Origin: Octopus vulgaris
Lineage: Eukaryota
Direction of reading: 5' to 3'
Length of the DNA stretch: 64,000 nt
Assembly (NCBI GenBank): GCA_951406725.2
Contig: OX597823.1
Coordinates: forward strand, 66,154,001 to 66,218,000
Both the position numbers and the translations under genes were made by a program. The notes beneath the pieces were generated by a model. That model had not been told where the DNA came from and did no database searches. It worked only from the letters and a program-made list of their open reading frames with translations. Of the stretch, positions 3,208-56,149 are shown one piece after another (positions within the stretch are counted from its first letter, which is position 1; the number at the start of each line of letters is the position of its first letter).

Positions 3208-4013
3208 ATGAGTTTGCTTGTTAGTTCAAAATCATATGTATTGCATGTTATAATTTGCGATTTTGAAGAGGTATCAAATATATCCGTTCATGGAACCTTG
3301 TCATATATTTTGCATAACTGACTTTATGGAACTAAAATGGAAGTATTTGGACTTGACGTAACCTACGAGGTATGATATTGTTAATTCGTTTTTTATACAT
3401 CGAATACCTTTGATGATTAACATGCCTTAAATAATGAACAAGACTAATAATTGTAGGTTATGAATTACTGACAATATATTAATATTCTACTACTCACAAC
3501 AACAAAGTTAGAATTCCTTATCAAATATATACACGATCAAAAATTAATCCTGAGATTTGCTGGGAGTTTTCTTGAATGTACTATTAAAATGACAAGTCCG
3601 CGTATATTCATCAGATAGAAAATGTTCCGAATCTGCAAATCAATGTTTTAGAACTTCAAAAACTTTTACTTCAACACATCCACGGAATTCAGAGTGGAAA
3701 TCTACTATCCAACAGCCTCTTATGCATTATTTGATTGCATTGTACTTATGCTTTTCTCTGTGTTTCTAACAAACTGTCTATACAATAAGAAATATTGAAT
3801 TTCTAAATCTCTCGTAGAGACATGTACGGTGGTAGGGCGATAGAATGGTTGTATACTGTCAATCTAACAAGAACGTGACAGTAGGAGGTACACCACCGCT
3901 GTATAGCCCTAGGAAGCATCGAACGCCTCCTGATAGCTTTGACACATTTTTTCCCTGTGTCCTTATATAGATATACGAAGGGGTGACAAACACCCCCGGC
4001 TGCCGGAACTGCA

Positions 4014-4059
4014 TCTAGAGACACCGTGTTTCAGGATCATTGTCCTTCATCGGCCTAGA
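4014..4059 (-). ncRNA. Minimal type I hammerhead (CCGAUGA core)
   Basis: tctagg-CCGATGA-agga(caatga)tcct-GAAA-cacggtg-TC-tctaga. Confidence 0.8.
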
Positions 4060-4187
4060 GTAGCAGACGAGAGATTTAGAAATTCAATATTTCTTATTTT
4101 GATAATCAGTGAATAAACTTCACAGAATATAGATATATAGAATTACGAAGTCGAGGCAAATATCACCAGCTGACCGGTATCTGCTAC

Positions 4188-4233
4188 TCTAGGACGATGA
4201 AGGACAATGATCCTGAAACACGGTGTCCCTAGA
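4188..4233 (+). ncRNA. Minimal type I hammerhead, core mutated (ACGAUGA)
   Basis: Stem I tctagg/cctaga, stem II agga/tcct, GAAA, quasi-palindromic stem III, GUC triplet; C3 changed to A. Confidence 0.7.
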
Positions 4234-4552
4234 TGCAGTTCCGGTAGCCGGGGGTGTTTGTCTCCCCTTCGTATATCTATATAAGGACACAGGGAAAAAA
4301 TGTGTCAAAGCTATCAGGAGGCGTTCGATGCTTCCTAGGGCTATACAGCGGTGGTGTACCCCCTGCTGTCACGTTCTTGTTAGATTGACAGTATACAACC
4401 ATTCTATCGCCCCACCACCGTACATGTCTCTACGAGAGATTTAGAAATTCAATATTTCTTATTTTGATAATCAGTGAATAAACTTCACTGAATATAGATA
4501 TATAGAATTACGAAGTCGAGGCAAATATCACCAGCTGACCGGTATCTGCTAC

Positions 4553-4598
4553 TCTAAGCCGATGAAGGACAATGATCCTGAAACACGGTGTCCCTAGA
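4553..4598 (+). ncRNA. Minimal type I hammerhead (CCGAUGA core)
   Basis: tctaag-CCGATGA-agga..tcct-GAAA-cacggtg-TC-cctaga; predicted cleavage after C4592. Confidence 0.8.
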
Positions 4599-5539
4599 TG
4601 CAGTTCCGGCAGCCGGGGGGTGTTTGTCTCCTCTTCGTATATCTATATAAGGATACAGGGAAAAAATGTGTCAAAGCTATCAGGAGGCGTTCGATGCTTC
4701 CTAGGGCTATACAGCGGTGCTGTACCCCCTACTGTCACGTTCTTGTTAGAATGACAGTATACAGCCATTCTGTCTATACAATTTTGTCTAACAATCATTT
4801 TTCATTCTCTCTTTTCACGTTGTGTCTCGTACTTTCTTTTCTCAACTTCTCCACTTTATTCCTTATGGGTAAGTCAAAACTTTCTAAGGGATTGATTTTC
4901 AGCAGAAAAACGTCATGTATATCAGAGAACGATTTTGAGCTTACTTTGTTTCGAACGTATATATACTAATTGCTGTTGCATTTCATCATTCGTGAACGAA
5001 TTGCTTATCGATGGGTGCCGATGTCTGTCGAGAATCAATACGTATTTCATTGTTTTCAACGGTGAACAAGGGTATCGTTTTGGTGATAACAATAAGCGCT
5101 TGCAATTAACGTTTTTGCTGAATTCGAAAAATTGACCGACTGTTCAATGCAATCAACTCGCCATTTAATGAAACTGAATCATTTGTTTGATAAAATAACA
5201 TCGGTTGTCAATTAAAAAAATTTCGATCAATTATAATTCTGTAGCTATTCCATCAATGGACAACTTGATAAATTTCGATCTACTGACCATTTTCTTGCGT
5301 TAGCTTATATATTTTAAGTTCTGTTGGCTGATATCTATATTACTTTTGAATATTAAACAATAGATTTAGCCTGTTATAACGCTAATATATTTTATCATAA
5401 AAGTTATTATAGGCTAAATCTATATACACATTTTATCATACAAGAATTCGATCAAATGTTCTGATTATATTTTATGAAATTCTATCACCTGACAGTTTAA
5501 AGGGGAGTTGGATCAACAATTCCGATAACTTCACCTACA

Positions 5540-8829: not shown

Positions 8830-9082
8830 CGTTTAAAACGTCAAGGTTGACAATGCTAAAACAGTTTTATAAAAAAAAACATTTCAGTACCAGTTTCAGT
8901 CATTGAGATGTTTTCTACCGTAAGTATGGAAAACAATTAAATTTTGGAAAAATTAGATGTAAAGATTTTAAAAGAATGCTTGCATAGTATTCAAATACAA
9001 GGGTCATTTTCCTTGTTTCTGTCTGTCTCTGTCTCTCTTGTTTACTCTTGTGGATTCAAGGTCGTTGTTAATTCTTGGCAGA

Positions 9083-9113
<31 letters not shown>

Positions 9114-9145
9114 AAGAAGAAGAAGAAGAAGAAGAAGAAGAAGAA
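8830..9145 (-). repeat. pLTR-like repeat abutting (GAA)n, inverted homolog of 28547-28990
   Basis: Alignable blocks (aatgctaaaa, gtacc(a/g)gttt, aaacaattaaatt, caaggg(t/a)cattttc, tttactcttgtg), each next to a GAA/TTC tract. Confidence 0.7.
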
Positions 9146-9149
9146 GGAT

Positions 9150-9620
9150 GCGGGAGTGCTAGTGAAGGATTTACAACTAAAAGCCCTACCATGCATCTCC
9201 ACACACAGCCCTCTTAACAATGAAGCCTTCGATACCATCCTTCAAAACCTTCCCCTGCTAAAAAAAGGAAAAGAGAATGAACTTAATCCTCCAAACACAC
9301 ATCATCATAAAAAGCAAGAGACAACCCAAATGAAAAATCTCCTAACACAAGCCCGAATACGCTCAACAATAATACTGAAGCCATCAGTAAAAAAATGCGA
9401 AAAACCCAACTGTGGGATATGCGACAATTTAATTGAGTGATCAGAGTTCTCCTTCAAAGAGGGACAAAGTTTCACAGTGAAAAGTAGCTTCACATTTGCT
9501 GATCCTGGAGTTCACAGTGCACATAAAGGCAACATAGCGGAATAGGAGCAACCTTAGGTTCTCTGAGGCTATCCTCATACACCAACAGAAACCCAAAATC
9601 AATAATAGAAGGGAATTACA
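9150..9620 (+). mobile_element. Penelope-like retroelement fragment (RT-endonuclease linker with Cys motif)
   Basis: ISTHSPLNNEAF..KNLLTQARI..VKKCEKPNCGICDNL; homologous to YISTHKPHNNEAF at ~24880 minus. Confidence 0.75.
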
Positions 9621-21447: not shown

Positions 21448-22206
21448 AGTATACTTATATATATTACATAGATCACAAAAAAATACAAAATATTATGAAG
21501 ACACTACATAATTAGTTGACTCGAGAGTTTGGCGACGAATCTCAGTGTTACGTTATAATTATAAATGTCATAATTTGCAAATGGAATATGAAATAGTTTT
21601 AGGTATACAACCAGTAAGCAGTAACACAGAGATGTTACAGTAAGTCCGGCTTAAATAGCGGTGCCAATGATTTAAACGGTTGGATGGTGAGAGGAGGTAG
21701 AACACGAAAGGCAGCAGCCAGACGAGGATATCAATGATATAGGAAGAGAGAGAGAGAGAGAGTAGTAGAATAGAAGAAATAGAAAGATGAGGAAGAGGGT
21801 AAAGTTAAAGTCTGTGAGGTGAAAACAAACATCAGTGTTAGTCAAGACAATCTATCAATGCAGCAAATGAATCAGTCAGGGATGGCAGCTGAAAAGACGG
21901 TGAGACGGGAAGAAATAAAGATTGAAAGAAACGAATCAGGATGGAGGTAGCGTTGGGATAAATTATGAGGAAATAAAGAGAATTTAGGAGCATAATTAAA
22001 TCTCAGAATGAGATTGAAACAGTAATCGCTCGATAATGTAAAGTATAGAAGCCATCTTATCATGGCTAACCACATTGGGGAGGGGGTGTTACTGTAGCTT
22101 TATAGCCCCACGAGATCTTCGTCTCTAGCTGGCTTTAGACACAATATCAGTGTCCTTTGAGTATTTGCAAAGGGAGGCCATCCCTTCCTCTCAAGCCTGA
22201 GTGATA

Positions 22207-22249
22207 CACTCGAACTAGTTTCGGGATTGTTGTCCCTCGTCAACGGGCG
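22207..22249 (-). ncRNA. Minimal type I hammerhead (UUGACGA core)
   Basis: cgcccg-TTGACGA-ggga(caacaa)tccc-GAAA-ctag-TT-cgagtg; palindromic AACTAGTT stem III. Confidence 0.72.
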
Positions 22250-22457
22250 GTAACCACCAGATCGCGATGAAAGTGAAGGCTGTCATGATAAGATGGCTTC
22301 TATACTTTACATTATCGAGCGATTACTGTTTCAATCTCATTCTGAGATTTAATCATGCTTACTGTTCGTTTTTCTACATCAGTGGCAGGCGTCACTAGAA
22401 AAACTTATATATATATTTGCAAAGCAGCCTTCACTTTCATCGCGACCTGGTGGTTAC

Positions 22458-22500
22458 CGCCCGTTGACGAGAGACAACAATCCCGAAACTAGTTCGAGCG
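22458..22500 (+). ncRNA. Minimal type I hammerhead (UUGACGA core)
   Basis: cgcccg-TTGACGA-gaga..tccc-GAAACTAGTT-cgagcg. Confidence 0.68.
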
Positions 22501-22778
22501 TATCACTCAGGCTTGCGAGGAAGGGATGGCCTCCCTTTGCAAATACTCCAAGGACACTGATATTGCGTCTAAAGCCAGCTAGAGACGAAGATCTCTTGGG
22601 GCTATAAAGCTACAGTAACATCCCCTCCCCAATGTGGTTAGCCATGATAAGATGGCTTCTATACTTTACATTAAAGAGAATTTAGTATAAGGAGAAAGGA
22701 GAAAGAAAATGACACTAGAGAATAGTATATATATACAGATACGCATATGTACAGTTAGATAAAACAAAGGGAACAACT

Positions 22779-23394: not shown

Positions 23395-23935
23395 CTGAGA
23401 GAATATTTCAGGTATAGAATACACTTCGTATTGCTCAAGACATTTAAACTTGAGCAGGGAGATAAGTTAATGTAAGGAAAGCAAGTTAGACAAGACGATA
23501 AAAAAAAGTATAAAATACATTAAAAGATGAATGCTTTGGCTTTGTTTTACATGTTTCGGTTTCTGAAAAAAACAAATCAAAAATATGTACTAAAATGGCA
23601 TATGTAGAGAGAAAAAGGAGCTTTTAATAAAATAAAATTTAAATTTAAATTAACACTCATAGTTTACTTTCCTTTCTTCCGCAAGTGTACGTATTAATTT
23701 CCGTTAATTTTCGTGGCATTACAAGTTGAACTGTCTGTGACCGCAAATTACTACTATGTGTTTATTTTGGTAAATTAAATAGTGTGAACAAGACTTGATT
23801 TTTATAGGTGTGGCTGTAGCAGTCAAATAACTAGCAGCAGTGATAATAATAGTTGACGTTGTAGAGAAGTTGTTCCCCCTGGGGTTTTAATAGAAATCGG
23901 GTTCTTCTATCCCTTGTCTTTGTTTCTTATGAATA
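23275..23935 (-). repeat. Penelope pseudo-LTR (3' copy)
   Basis: Inverted match to 25610-26097. Confidence 0.8.
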
Positions 23936-24120
23936 ACTTGCATATCCATATATTCATATATATATATATATCACCCGGATATATCTCCGCAAACAATAAC
24001 GCTCTGCTCGAATGGGCCTTGGTGCCCAAATCCTGAATTGAAAGACTTCGCCAGGTGGTGCTATTAAGTTAGACATGGCCTGGGCCAATACTGGCCAAAA
24101 CCTTTCTAAGTTATTCTAAG

Positions 24121-24201
<81 letters not shown>

Positions 24202-24288
24202 TATACACAGATATATATACACATACGCATATGAAGATACATACACACACTCATATATATATATGCATAAACACACATACACACACAC

Positions 24289-24331
<43 letters not shown>

Positions 24332-24369
24332 TATACATAAACACACACATATATACACACATACATACA

Positions 24370-25520
24370 TATAAAATGTCTCAGTATTGCGAGTTTAATG
24401 AATTTAGCCTCGGTCTATATCTCCATATGAAATGCATCGATGTGCTGGCTGAGAGGTATTTTCCTGTATTCCGGAATCATAATTTGAGATTTGTGCACCG
24501 ACGTCCTCTGGCGTAGGCTGTTTTTTTTGTGTGTCCAATACATTGCCGTTTTGCATCCCGAGCATGTAATTAAGTAAGTCAAATTCTCCGATGCACATGT
24601 AAAATTAGTTTTTTATGGTGAAATTATGGCCTTGCTCTAATCGGTATTCTGATACTTCTAGTATGTTGGTACAGAATAAGTTAGGGTCTCCCGCACTTTT
24701 TTCATTGTCGACTGTGTAGTTACTGCTGAGTATAATTTGGCCTGGGATAAAATCTTTTTCACTGATTTTGGCTTCTCTTACTTTTGATGATTGTGTGTGT
24801 TTTGAGGGTTTGATTCATCTTTGGGTCTCTCTTGGGTAGAGCTCTGCTGTGTAGCATAGTTTTGAAGGCCTCATTGTTATGTGGCTTGTGTGTGGAAATG
24901 TAAGATAGGGTTTTCAATTTTTCTTCCTTCTTTGGTCTTCGTAGTCTAAGTTCTTGAGTATTTACTGTACGTACTCATTGGATCGTATTGTCGATCAAGG
25001 GTTGTGTGTATTTCTTATTGATGAGTGTTGTTTTCAATTCCTCGCGTCGAGTCTAACGGGTGTTTGCGTCTGATACTATTGTGCATATTGTTTTGGCTAA
25101 ACAAAATGGGATGTTCATCCTGGTGCGTCCCGGGTGGCAAGAATCAAATGGCAGGTACTGTTTCGAGTCCATGGTTTGTAAAAGATATCTGTCTCTATTT
25201 CGTTCCCGACTTTTTTAAGGATATCTAAAATCGGTAGTTGTTCCTGGTTGTACTCTATCGTAAATTGGAAGTTTTTATTTATTCCATTTAGAAGTGTTTG
25301 GAATTCGTTACGTTTTTCTATACTTTCATTCCAAAGGATGAAGCAGTCATCGAGATATCTTTTCCAGTTGACTTGAATGTAGGTTGAAAAGGAGTTTCCA
25401 TATTTCTCGAGTGTTTTCTGGTATTGTTTAATTTTGAGATAGCCCATTACCAGTTTCGCAAAATAAGGTGCAGCCTGTGTTTCCATTGCTGTCCCTGATA
25501 TTTTGTCGGAAGTAGTCATT
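24370..25520 (-). mobile_element. 5'-truncated Penelope-like retroelement (RT C-terminal part plus GIY-YIG)
   Basis: SGTAMETQAAPYFAKLVMGYL, WKRYLDDCFILW, FTIEY..LPILDI, TDIFYKP; decayed endonuclease downstream. Confidence 0.9.
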
Positions 25521-25609
25521 GTTAAATATAAAATAATTGTTTTCTAGGATAAACCTTAGTCCTTCTAGTATGAGGTATTTTTTTTAATGCGAGTGGGTGT
25601 TCATAGGTG

Positions 25610-26097
25610 TATAAATAAAGACAAGGGTTATAGGGGTAGAAGAACCCGATTTCTATTAAAATCCCAGGGGGAACAAGTTCACCACGACAACTACTATTAT
25701 TATCCCCGCTGCTAGTTATTCGACTGCTACAGCCACTCCCATAGAAAACAAGTCTTGACCACACTATTTAATTTACCAAAACAAACAGATAGTAGTAATT
25801 TGCGGTCACAGACAGTTCAACGTGTCAAGCCACGAAAATTAACGGAAATTAATACGTGCACTTGCAGGAAAATGCAAAGTAAGCTATGAATGTTAATTGT
25901 AATTTAACTGTATTAAAAGCTCCTTTTTCTCTCTACATATTCCATTTTAGTACAAATTTTTTGATTAGGTTTTTCAAAAACCGAAACATGTAAAACAAAG
26001 CGAAAGCATTCTACTTTTAATGTATTTATTTGAAAGAAAATTAAAATGTACCCAATTTTAAGAAAGTATCAGTTTCGTTCACCTTTTTCATGAATAT
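25610..26097 (+). repeat. Inverted Penelope pseudo-LTR with relic hammerhead
   Basis: TTGATTA-ggttt(ttcaa)aaacc-GAAACATGTA at ~25961-25992; inverted match to 23275-23935. Confidence 0.78.
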
Positions 26098-37261: not shown

Positions 37262-37292
37262 TATCACAAATATAAAATTTCTAAATAACTCA

Positions 37293-37517
37293 TAGAGATA
37301 TGTACGGTGGTGGGGCGATAGAGTGGTTGTATACTGTCAACTTAACGTGACAGTAAGGGGGGGGATTACACCACCGCTGTTTATCCCTAGGAAGCATCGA
37401 CACTTCCTGTCGGCCTTGAAATGTGTCAAGGCCGACAGGAAGCGTCGATGCTTCCTAGGGATAAACAGCGGTGATATAATCCCCGTCTTACTGTCACGTT
37501 AAGTTGATAGTATACAA

Positions 37518-37525
<8 letters not shown>
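37293..37525. repeat. Fold-back of a family A relative (family C), HHR segment absent
   Basis: ~100-bp arms around 37420; homologous to 4300-4430. Confidence 0.88.
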
Positions 37526-37581
<56 letters not shown>

Positions 37582-49916: not shown

Positions 49917-50125
49917 CCGGAGTAAGCACATAAATGTGAAACAAGGTGGAAAAAAGAGTACTCAAATACCAGAGGTAGAGTAATATGCTTTATTTAAAAG
50001 CAGCAGAAATATAACAAAAGCTGTTACTCAGAGTCTCACGTTCCCGTTAACAAAACTGTCCGACGAACGGGAACGTGAAACTCTGAGTAACAGATGTTGT
50101 TATATTTCTGCTGCAGTTAGATAAA

Positions 50126-51924: not shown

Positions 51925-54900
51925 AATACTTTATATTTGCTAAGTTTTTGGTAGGTCTTGACAGATACGTTTATATCGATTGGGACAGTCATATCAATGA
52001 GGAGGCATGTTCTTTGTCTGAAGTCTTTCAATATGATGTCTGGCCTATTTGCATCTATCCTTCTGTCAATTTGAATGGTGAAGTTCCAGAGGAGTGAGAT
52101 GTGGTCATTTTCAAGCACTGGAGGTGGATTGTGTTCCCACCAGTTTTTTTTCATGGGGCAAATTCAGGTTTTTGCAAATTACCCAGTGAATATATTGTGC
52201 AGCTCTATCATGCCTGTTGAGGTACTCTGTAGTCGCTAGAAGACTGCATTTGGAGACAACATGATCAATGGTTTCATTTTGTTGTCGGCATACACGACAT
52301 GTTGGGCTACTACCGTTCTTTAATATGTTGGCCTGGTAGTTTCTCGTTGGTAGGCCTTGATCTTGAGCTGCTATGATAAACTCCTCTGTTTCAGATTTTA
52401 AGCCAGATGCCATTAGCCATTGATGGGTCAGGGCTTTGTCAATATCTGCATTATTCGCTCTCTTTGGGTATTTGCCATAGAGAGGTTTTCTTGCCATTTA
52501 TTATTCAGAATATCTAAGGCCGCAGTTTTGGCACGGGTTTTCATGCGCCTAGCTTTTTCTGTGCTTGTTTCTTGTATGTCTATCTCTAATTCCGAAATTG
52601 GTTGTATTCGGAATTCACTTAGATATTCCTTTGCCTGTTTTGTTACTGAGTATGATGCTTTCTTGTTTTCATGTTTTGAGACAAGTTTTAACATCCAGTC
52701 CTCAGACTTATTCAGGTAGGTGTCTAGGCCACTTGTAGCAATTTTCATTGTCATTGCCAGTTGCAAAAGACCACGGCCTCCTCTTTTCTTGGCAGATAAA
52801 GTCGTTCTGTATCTGCCTTAGGGTGGTGCATTCTATGCATTGTCAACAGTTTTCTTATTTTTCTGTCGAGCTGACATATTTCAGTAATTGACCAGTTAAC
52901 AGTATTGAAACTGTAAGTCACGACTGGTATGGCTAATGCATTGATCGCTTCGATCCTGTTTCTTGCATTCAGCTCTGTCTTGAGTATTGCGTTCACTCTT
53001 CGATAGCATTCTCTCCTGATCATTTCCATCATCTCTGAATGCCTTATTCCGTTCCCTTCAATTACCCCTAGGTACTTGTAGCTCTCCGCTGGGTCTAGTT
53101 CTTTTATGACATTCTGCTGGTCAAGGTTAACGTTACATGTTTCTGTCATTTTTCCTTTGATAAAGGTAGCTTTTGCACATTTATCGAGGCCGAATTGCAT
53201 TCTGATGTCGTCACTGAATTGTTTGACTATCGCTAGTAAGCCCTTGAGTTGTTGGTCATTTTTTACAAAGAGCTTTAAATCATTCATGTAAATGAGATGA
53301 TTTATATTTTTATCAAACATTTTATACCCGTACTGCGCGTCATTGAGCAGTTTTGAGTGAGGTATTAAGGCAAAACAAAAGAGGAGTGGTGACAGTGAGT
53401 CACCCTGGAAAATGCCACACGAAATTTTTACATCACCAGCATTTAGGATTCATTGTCACTGTTCAGAGTTAGTGTGGTTCTCCATGATCTCATACTTACA
53501 GTCAAAAAGTTTCGCAGAGTAGGTACTATCTTATACATTTCTAGGCATTTCCTAATCCAGCTATGTGGTAGGCTATCAAAAGCCTTTTTATAGTCTATCC
53601 AGGCTATTGATAAGTTTATGTGTCGTTTGTGACAATCTTCTAAGATCATCTTATTGATGAGTAGTTGATCTTTACAGCCGTAGAATCCACGTTTACATCC
53701 TTTCTGTTCATTAGGGAATATGCTGCTGTCTGTTAAAAACTATAAGTATATTCCGTCAGGACAGATTTTAGCGTTTTATACATAGTTGTTAAGCAGGCTA
53801 TGGGTCTATAGTTTTTTGGTTCATTTGTTTCTTTACTTTTTGGAAGCAGGAATGTTAACCCATTAACTAGCCAAGGAGGCATCCTACTAGGGTGTTGCAA
53901 AACATCATTGTACAGTTCTGTTAGCAGTTCATGGCTCTCTGGGAAGGCATTCAGCCAGAAGTTAGGAATTTTATCCTTTCCTGGAGACTTCCATTTGCTT
54001 GACCTCCTGAGAGCAGATCTTATATCTTCTACCTTGACACCCTCCCACTTTTGCTCTTCTAAGGGGTCCAGTTCTGTCGATATTCTGTCAATCCAGGGGG
54101 CCTTTTCGTTGTGTGTTTTTTCTTCAGCACAAATTTTATTCCAAAATCCCTGCACTTCTTCTTTTGATGGTACAGACCTTGCAGTAAACGCTGTTTTTCC
54201 TATCTTCCTGTAAAAATTCTTGGGGTTATTTTTAAACATGTTGTTGTCCTTGAAAAATCTAACACGCTTTTCATACCTCGCTATGCGGGCAGCTTTGGCA
54301 GATACCTTTTGTTTGATGGTTTCTATGGTTGCATCAATATCAAGTATAGTTTTCATATTGTATTTTTTCAGCATTTTTTGGGTTTTTGTAGGTTTGGTAG
54401 TCTTCTGAGCCTTAAGGTTTTTCAAATATTCAATGTCAGATCTAAATAGTTTAATTTGTTGTTGCAGACGCTCTTGCCAAGAAGGCTTTTTGTGGGAATG
54501 TTGCCGTTTTCTAATCTTTACACCACATAGTATCGTTGAGATTTTCGCGGATGCATAGTATAGGTGGTTGAGAGTTGTGATATCAACATCATTAGCTGAA
54601 ATTATATCCCTAAGTGCAAGCCGGATTTTACCAATTATTTTCATGTTTTGGTTAGAGTTGCGGATTTTAGGGAGTGTATCACGTTCATCCATGCTGGTTT
54701 CTTTAATTTTCAACCATTCAATCATGATTTGATTTTTAGCTCATGTAGTTCTGTTGGGTCAATATTTGTGTGACTTTCTTTATCTATTTGATGTTCATCT
54801 GTCTTCGTGTTTATGATTGGTTCAGGGAGTATTTCACTTTGCCTATCACTTATACTAACTCTTTCAATCCTTACTTCGTTTTTATCAGTCCTGGGCTGGT

Positions 54901-55480
54901 CTATAATTATTTCCTCTGTATGATCTTCTCTAGCTGCAGCTTCGTTCATTTTATCCGATATTGCTTGTCTAACTTGATCAATCTCTACTTCAGTCAGTAA
55001 TTTTTTTTATAATGTTTCTTCTGACGTTGACAAGTTTGTTACTGTCTATGTAGGGTCTTACTTCAGGGTGTTTCTGTCTCCAGTTTAAGTATGTTTGTAC
55101 AGTGTTAGATTTATCTGTGAGGAAATATATGGCATGGTAGAAGGCCTCAAGAACTTCTTTATTATCTTCCCTAGACCATTTTTCCTTCTTTTTCTTTTGA
55201 TTATTTGGTGACGAGCATGGATGGCCATCTGTTGGAATATTCCGGTTGTGGAGTACGTCCAGCTCCTGTGTGTTGGGAATATTTGATCCAGTAGCTGATT
55301 TTTCAATCAGAATTTGGTTCAATTTTCGGGTACGTGGTCTTTTGTAATCCGCGCAACGACCAATGCGGTTTATTGTTTGATTTGTTGACATTGAAGCATG
55401 ACGAGCTGCCATTCTTATATTAGGAGATGGATATGTCAGTTTACGGTTCTCTACACGTAAGCATTGCTCGTAGCGCATCT
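51925..55480 (-). mobile_element. Near full-length R4/Dong-clade non-LTR retrotransposon (RT plus restriction-like endonuclease), pseudogenised
   Basis: Ordered ORF pieces: [91 protein letters not shown]. Confidence 0.95.
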
Positions 55481-56149
55481 TCTTAAGGCTAGTAGATCTG
55501 TATTCGTCTGTATTTTTTTTTGTTGATAGTTTTATCTCCGAACATTTTTTTCCCTTCTCTTCCTTTTTTCCTCTCTCTTTCTCTCTATCTCCTTCTTCCC
55601 ATTTATCCTTCCTTCATTTCCCTTCCTCTTTTAAACTTATAAAAGGCTCACTCTGCCTGTATTAGCTCGGAATAATGAGAATAGAATACGGAGAAAGAAA
55701 AGAAAAAAGGGATCTGTCAGTTATTATTGTTATTACTATCACCTTCATCACCATCACCATCATCATCATCATCAACATCACCATCACCATCATCATCATC
55801 AGTGACATTGTTTTATGTGTAGTCACAGCCATCATCAACACCACTACTGCCATTGTGTGGGGGATTAATTGGTTAAAGAGGTCATGTTCTATGGGTCTAT
55901 AAATAGATTCAGCAGATGGTGGAGACAAAGGATGTTAATAGTCAGTAAAAGGTCAAACCTGTTTACATTTTTTTTCCTTTCTCTTTTCTTCCTTTCCACA
56001 TACATATTTATATGTATACTCACACACACATATTATCTGATGTTTACGTCGATGATTTTTTTTTTAATTACTGAATTCAATGTTATGTATATATTTTTTA
56101 AATTTCTGAAATCAGTTGTATGTATATATTAGCAGGTGCTTAATTCCAT

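Follow-up and report, generated by a model that had tools for sequence, protein, structure and literature searches.

Which structured element follows the hammerhead motifs of the short repeats at this locus, and what would it do for the RNA that carries it? The window, by which we mean the whole 64,000-nucleotide stretch of Octopus vulgaris DNA analysed here (contig OX597823.1, positions 66,154,001 to 66,218,000), lies in a genome of 2.8 Gb rich in microsatellites, and the original prediction had described in it three divergent hammerhead families, A, B and C, sharing a second, unassigned RNA domain. The repeats, about 355 bases long, are parasitic mobile elements, namely retrozymes, which are non-autonomous Penelope-like elements. 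Their units are non-coding and measure 365 nt in A, 359 nt in B and 342-365 nt across lineages; each has one type I hammerhead, identified by core and stems, and tandem arrays reach about 9 units, as in non-LTR retrozymes. The 5'-truncated partial tandems, and the inverted copies in which one end has a tail, are those of a non-autonomous Penelope-like element. A first genome search gave 2,032 candidates for A and 1,802 for B, the best copies being 95-98% identical (40 scored each), and genome searches gave 1,513 for D and 384 for E, two further lineages. The A, B and C regions of the window are each an inverted-repeat insertion, laid out as follows (helix P3 and end sites 1 and 2 belong to the domain described below).

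3784 to 4774, both strands: family A insertion with head-to-head arms, from sequence comparison; minus arm 3784-4067, plus arm 4067-4774 (about 1.9 tandem 365-nt units)
3774 to 3786, plus strand: left copy of the 13-bp target-site duplication of A, end microhomology included
4770 to 4782, plus strand: right copy of the 13-bp target-site duplication of A
4182 to 4239, plus strand: type I hammerhead of A, core 4194-4227, from a core and stem search, with no Rfam match
21989 to 22282, minus strand: family B minus arm, with hammerhead 22191-22261 and complete domain 22158-21989, ending at site 2
22284 to 22673, plus strand: family B plus arm, with the tail of a truncated unit (TTACTGT at 22323-22329) and a hammerhead core from 22464, ending at site 1
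22550 to 22673, plus strand: domain of the B plus arm, P3 5' strand at 22612-22618
21974 to 21987 and 22672 to 22685, plus strand: left and right copies of the 14-bp target-site duplication of B
37264 to 37527, both strands: 'family C', 5'-truncated copies arranged head-to-head, from a subfamily of the A group; the minus arm runs to site 2, the plus arm to site 1

The shared order of motifs (GGACAC-loop-GYGTC, AAGC, hairpin, GGGCTA, AGC, C-run) is present where it had been described and occurs far above chance. The pattern GGACAC-N-GYGTC-N-AAGC matched 2,633 times in the genome against 73 for the reversed control, a second pattern search 2,836 times against 120, and the core pattern 5,007 times against 0. 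At least ten homologous lineages with the domain are found in the genome, those beyond A and B being labelled D, E, F, G, H, I, K, M, N and P from the pattern searches, and more may exist. Identity of the domain between the main lineages is about 55-71%. Five complete units can be aligned end to end, and since whole units align in this way the lineages descend from one ancestor, so that the families do not have different bodies joined to a common module, as the original prediction had it. The third family was likewise not a divergent one: C is a head-to-head 5'-truncated pair of the A group, identical at 136/149 positions to another copy (L093) and at 124/142 to A, and no hammerhead core was found in the insertion. 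A metagenome scan gave 10 pattern matches, 0/10 of which fit the domain model. Contigs from 4 sequencing runs, three other organism labels among them, cover A-like sequence and are silent on strand, ends and expression; no RNA runs are listed among the sequencing runs recorded with such sequence.

The domain is the conserved 3' part of the retrozyme unit, for which our model predicts a nested fold: hairpin P1, then P2, then a P3/P4/P5 junction closed by a long-range helix (P3), and then P6. Its location agrees with the 4283-4425 of the original prediction, and it continues past 4425 to 4462. The elements on the A copy are as follows.

4286 to 4306, plus strand: P1 hairpin, GACACA/TGTGTC (alignment model, folding)
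4309 to 4342, plus strand: P2, with outer strands AGCT (4309-12) and GGCT (4339-42), an internal loop and an inner hairpin at 4316-4336; the G-run is paired within it (RNAalifold, tree test, MFE)
4348 to 4356, plus strand: P3 5' strand, partner 4413-4421 (RNAalifold, tree test, MFE)
4357 to 4363, plus strand: C-run, unpaired in A and B, in most other lineages the 5' arm of local hairpin P4
4364 to 4393, plus strand: P5 hairpin (GYCA ... TGRC, loop with a conserved TT)
4403 to 4407, plus strand: insertion end site 1, putative RT start 1; single-stranded linker, with the P3 3' strand following after about 5-10 nt
4408 to 4462, plus strand: tail, 55 nt, between both ends, with the P3 3' strand at 4413-4421, P6 at 4426-4440 and P7 at 4443-4459
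4458 to 4462, plus strand: insertion end site 2, putative RT start 2

The same fold is the single-sequence MFE structure of window positions 4282-4462 (z -3.3, minus strand z -1.4), and the centroid of B retains P1, P2, P3, P5 and P6 (z -1.5). P3 is a helix of 7-9 bp whose sequence is changed on both sides between lineages: it is CGGUGGUG/CACCACCG in the RNA of A and ACAGUAA/UUACUGU in that of B, and the DNA strands read CGGTGGTG/CACCACCG in A, ACAGTAA/TTACTGT in B, CAGCAACA/TGTTGCTG in D and GTAGTAACA/TGTTACTAC in E. The helix spans site 1, with one strand upstream of the site and the other in the tail just beyond. Several nucleotides at predicted unpaired positions are near-invariant, namely AAA after P2, TT in the P5 loop and TTT after P6. 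A TATA-box upstream of P1 was considered and rejected, as B, F, G and H lack TATAA.

This fold differs from the one originally proposed, in which the G-run and C-run paired as a pseudoknot across another helix. The intervening helix of A (cggtggtg/caccaccg) is real and corresponds to P3 at 4348-4356/4413-4421. Its supposed counterpart in B (ctaca/tgtgg) fails outside B, being paired in 26% of cells across lineages, and the actual partner is TTACTGT in the tail (22323-22329). The gggat/atccc pairing of C depends on a rare C>A change, the nucleotide after the G-run being A in 2/186, C in 168 and T in 16. The partner of the G-run is AAGC in outer P2, and in E the pair reads AACC/GGTT, i.e. it covaries. 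The runs could still pair in an alternative conformation, as a switch against P2a/P4 that would lie beside the template, as in telomerase, and control hammerhead cleavage or RT loading: the first 3 bp (GGG/YYY) could form in 101/107 cells, and the C-run of A, B and G is free, its local P4 partner having been lost. Against this, double changes occur in 0/5 pairs, the fourth position is never paired, the tree test is not significant (p 0.37-1.0) and the G-run covaries with AAGC instead, and we regard such a switch as improbable.

The nested helices were identified in two alignments. RNAalifold on a structure-blind MAFFT alignment of 18 copies returned P2 (AAGC/GGCT closing the inner hairpin) and P3, with 12/18 pairs changing on both sides. 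In a second alignment of 17 copies, 86.5% of the cells of the P1-P6 model are paired and 21/40 pairs change on both sides, including 8/9 of the pairs of P3. As the copies are related, tree-aware tests were used, on the 41 tail-containing copies among 77 model matches; this alignment was fitted to the model, yet the same P2 and P3 columns are found in the MAFFT alignment. Changes on the same branch were more frequent than in rate-matched columns for P3 (9.7 vs 3.4 expected, p=0.0002), also on a tree built from unpaired columns (9.5 vs 3.7, p=0.0009), and for P2b (11.0 vs 2.3 expected), while P2a was weakly significant (p about 0.03). Co-change of P4, P5 and P6 was not significant in the 41-copy test, and the significance of P1 was set aside, since a few rows whose 5' sequence is unrelated inflate it. 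An R-scape-like all-pairs test on the model-fitted and MAFFT alignments of the 41 copies gave no pair at E<0.05, the best true pairs reaching E 1.3-2, and in the cells of P3 G-U and A-C are equally common (21 vs 23). Covariation is thus seen at the level of whole helices, P3 and P2b and weakly P2a, and not in the all-pairs test. A conserved, covarying structure with a function, as the original prediction held, is supported.

The ends of the insertions indicate what this function may be. Among 57 A arms (30 loci), 44 have their 3' end at 4403-4409 or 4453-4462, one of them at the equivalent position of the unit, and usually run into (TA)n; the 5' ends of the 57 arms lie at 54 different positions. 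Because the 3' ends cluster on the hammerhead strand and the 5' ends are scattered, the sense strand is fixed, and the functional strand, which the original prediction had left open, is the hammerhead strand, plus at 4283-4462. Fixed 3' ends with scattered 5' ends are the signature of Penelope-like insertion. Site 2 is 42-55 nt downstream of site 1, which itself lies inside the P3 loop. Measured from P5 in A, B, D and F (E, A2-4 and I were left out, with indels and subfamily differences), site 1 is at 12-18 nt despite differing local sequence and site 2 at 57-63 nt in B and F and 66-74 nt in A and D, and the linker between P5 and P3 has a constant length. These end positions could also be passively inherited from the common ancestor.

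Of 36 inverted insertions, 27 have one end of each kind; both arms end at site 1 in 2 and at site 2 in 2, and 5 could not be classified. One-of-each use in 27/31 classifiable insertions departs from an expectation of 1/2 (p=2e-5) and also from 2/3 (p=0.009), the latter being the fairer null for the A loci as the A query used for their selection crosses site 1. The A, B and C insertions of the window are all one-of-each. The targets are TA-rich, with (TA)n flanks, and the insertions are bordered by target duplications of 13 bp at A and 14 bp at B, as at Penelope-like targets; no duplication was seen at C. Rare variants are shared between the arms of one A insertion in 13/132 cases as compared to 5/2310 between loci, and between tandem units in F in 22/40 as compared to 5/228, which a circle or an array transcript fits equally well. 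Such sharing would be consistent with one template for the arms or units of a locus, and gene conversion is an alternative.

The helices might nevertheless serve only the compactness or stability of a circular or linear RNA (nuclease resistance, ligation, insulation of the hammerhead), with the RT starting in accessible single-stranded A/U-rich stretches and no specific recognition domain. The whole unit is homologous and predicted to fold as a self-paired circle composed of a hammerhead rod and the domain helices, and circRNAs of metazoan retrozymes are described as highly self-paired in the accessible text of PMC7229834. The contrast in conservation is modest, too: per 30-column window it is 0.46-0.65 in the domain and 0.42-0.57 in the rest of the unit (5 units), a slight excess, and the sampled autonomous elements do without the domain. 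The near-invariant AAA, TT and TTT at predicted unpaired positions are not what stability would call for, nor are the constant linker from P5 to P3 and the fixed distance of site 1, and one-of-each site use requires positional information. On balance we consider it unlikely that the domain acts through stability alone. Recognition by an RT, one of the functions originally suggested, is the option best supported, since the domain brackets both insertion ends.

Another of the suggested functions was a second ribozyme, which might cleave itself or ligate and complete RNA circularisation, and the state of the hammerheads bears on it. In A and B the hammerhead precedes the GGACAC hairpin by about 60-90 nt and is on the same strand. 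By sequence the cores are canonical in D, F and G and variant in A, B and E: the A core is CCGATGA (U4C) in 47/52 copies, U4C is also present in most E copies, and the B core is TTGACGA (U3 opposite G8) in 33/34 copies. Rfam Hammerhead_1 scores 32.2 bits in F (GA 34) and HH9 30.7 bits in B (GA 52), both below gathering, and the A hammerhead had no Rfam match. Cleavage in A is predicted after 4227, a position that we assume from the hammerhead consensus. The variant cores of A and B, together with the conserved unpaired residues of the domain, would leave room for a second ribozyme, and according to the accessible text of PMC3088659 U4C lowers activity in vitro. D, F and G, however, combine canonical cores with the same domain, and 5' truncation shows no preferred position. 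The available text of PMC7229834 ascribes the circularisation of retrozymes to tRNA ligases. The Rfam covariance-model search of the domain gave no match to any Rfam family, and none to a ribozyme even at E<=10, the pseudoknotted small ones (HDV-like, twister, pistol) included, the remaining matches being microsatellite or inverted-repeat artefacts and sub-threshold hammerheads, and no covarying pseudoknot was found. A second ribozyme is therefore very improbable. That A and B reach thousands of copies with variant cores would fit a relaxed requirement for cleavage. F and G form near-identical arrays (L243, L314) of up to about 9 units with canonical cores and are probably the youngest lineages. 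A further hammerhead-like core (CCGACGA ... GAAA) lies at window position 50060 on the plus strand, where the domain covariance model R1 does not match.

The genome also holds candidate enzymes. Many intact 781-aa ORFs encode an RT, a GIY-YIG domain and a Cys linker, and by the clade description in the accessible part of PMC8557442 they would be classed as Neptune. In this family and in a second one, copies terminate at two sites that follow hammerhead-like cores, precede (TA)n and are about 30-38 nt apart, and Neptune-type elements are plausible mobilisers of the retrozymes. Among 91 loci centred on Penelope-like elements (the best-scoring GIY-YIG/RT matches, searched 1.5-2.5 kb downstream), the domain was found in the element's own 3' region in 0/91, and model matches in 4/91 were each a separate insertion, so an origin of the domain from the pLTR of an autonomous element is unsupported in this sample, which gave no homology between them. 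The autonomous tails are shorter (about 30-38 nt) and have no evident P3; a possible GTATATAT/ATATATAC pairing appears in 2/6 folds of Neptune 3' ends, without covariation.

Members of the 781-aa family (L121, L124, L130, L249, L255) have an upstream 475-aa ORF and 3' UTR repeats with CCAAT/TGACGT. Their hammerhead-like core is minimal and of the U3-A8 type, and the 38-nt tail contains a CTCG/CGAG hairpin similar to P6. Within the window, positions 23500-26030 (minus strand) hold a degraded Neptune-type element with inverted terminal arms (23639-23914/25632-25907), an internal (TA)n run and a Penelope-type RT remnant at 25115-25543 that is related to the 781-aa ORFs. A piece of the same Neptune-type protein, its linker with CxxPxCxxC, lies at 9072-9440 (plus strand), and pieces of a broken non-LTR retrotransposon ORF at 52111-55613 (minus strand; Pfam RVT_1 E 2.7e-10).

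Taken together, it seems likely that the domain is a putative binding and start-positioning element for a Penelope-like RT-endonuclease, probably of the Neptune clade, that is borrowed in trans. Tandem arrays would be transcribed and the RNA then cut or circularised by the hammerhead, after which the RT would bind the P2/P3 architecture and the endonuclease make two staggered nicks. Priming at site 1, which lies inside the P3 loop, would use one 3' end of the target, and priming at site 2 the other. The two cDNAs made in this way would vary in length, at times spanning several units, and would be joined head-to-head. Self-priming on the antisense template, described in the accessible text of PMC3846280, competes with the two nicks as an account of the head-to-head junctions.

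Retrozymes, the tail and internal initiation are already known. The conserved structure at these insertion ends has no description in the accessible literature. More tentatively, the domain could be the first structurally defined RNA recognition domain of a Penelope-like RT, a telomerase-RNA-like junction closed by a helix with two internal starts, one for each active site of a dimeric RT-endonuclease. It would then explain the tail and the head-to-head insertions and provide a portable module of 180 nt by which an RNA could be retrotransposed in trans from internal starts. These data bear on the way in which Penelope-like RTs, to which telomerase RT is most closely related, recognise their RNA and select two internal start sites, and mobilisation of animal retrozymes by Penelope-like elements has so far been inferred mainly from co-occurrence and phylogeny. 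With more than ten lineages carrying natural compensatory variants around both ends, and intact candidate enzymes in the same genome, the recognition model is directly testable by mutate-and-rescue.

In SINE/LINE pairs a 3' stem-loop, and in R2 the 3' UTR, is a structured RNA through which an autonomous element's RT can copy the transcript in trans. In contrast, initiation here would use two internal sites and not the RNA 3' end, and no sequence shared with an autonomous partner was found. Telomerase RNA has a template boundary helix and the CR4/5 three-way junction, and its RT is related to those of Penelope-like elements. The likeness, which is an analogy only, lies in the internal template position defined by a helix and in the three-way junction; the units differ in that they lack a telomeric template, repeat addition and Rfam similarity and that their pseudoknot is unsupported.

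Metazoan non-LTR retrozymes are non-coding tandem units of 170-400 nt with a type I hammerhead and thousands of copies, according to the accessible texts of PMC7229834 and bioRxiv 10.64898/2026.07.22.740005. The octopus elements have the small tandem units, the one type I hammerhead in each, the thousands of copies and the proposed Penelope-like mobilisation in common with them, but most of their insertions are dispersed head-to-head copies that lack a 5' part, have two fixed 3' ends and are bordered by target duplications. The cores of A and B are variants, and the accessible retrozyme texts describe no conserved domain other than the hammerhead and no mapping of ends to structure. The pLTR and tail of Penelope-like elements are closest in layout. 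As far as the available texts go (PMC11167929, PMC8557442, PMC3846280), they have in common with the octopus units two 3' ends preceded by a hammerhead, a tail confined to one end of inverted insertions (described in the latter two), target duplications of 8-14 bp and AT-rich targets, with a (TA)n preference as in Neptune; here there is no ORF and the tail is 42-55 nt as compared to 30-40. In PAc, a Poseidon element, two RT start sites have been mapped by experiment, one on each side of the tail, and mutation of the hammerhead does not abolish insertion, by the accessible text of PMC11167929. PAc starts in an AC-rich stem-loop within its ORF, whereas the putative starts here lie on either side of the 3' strand of a long-range helix that covaries.
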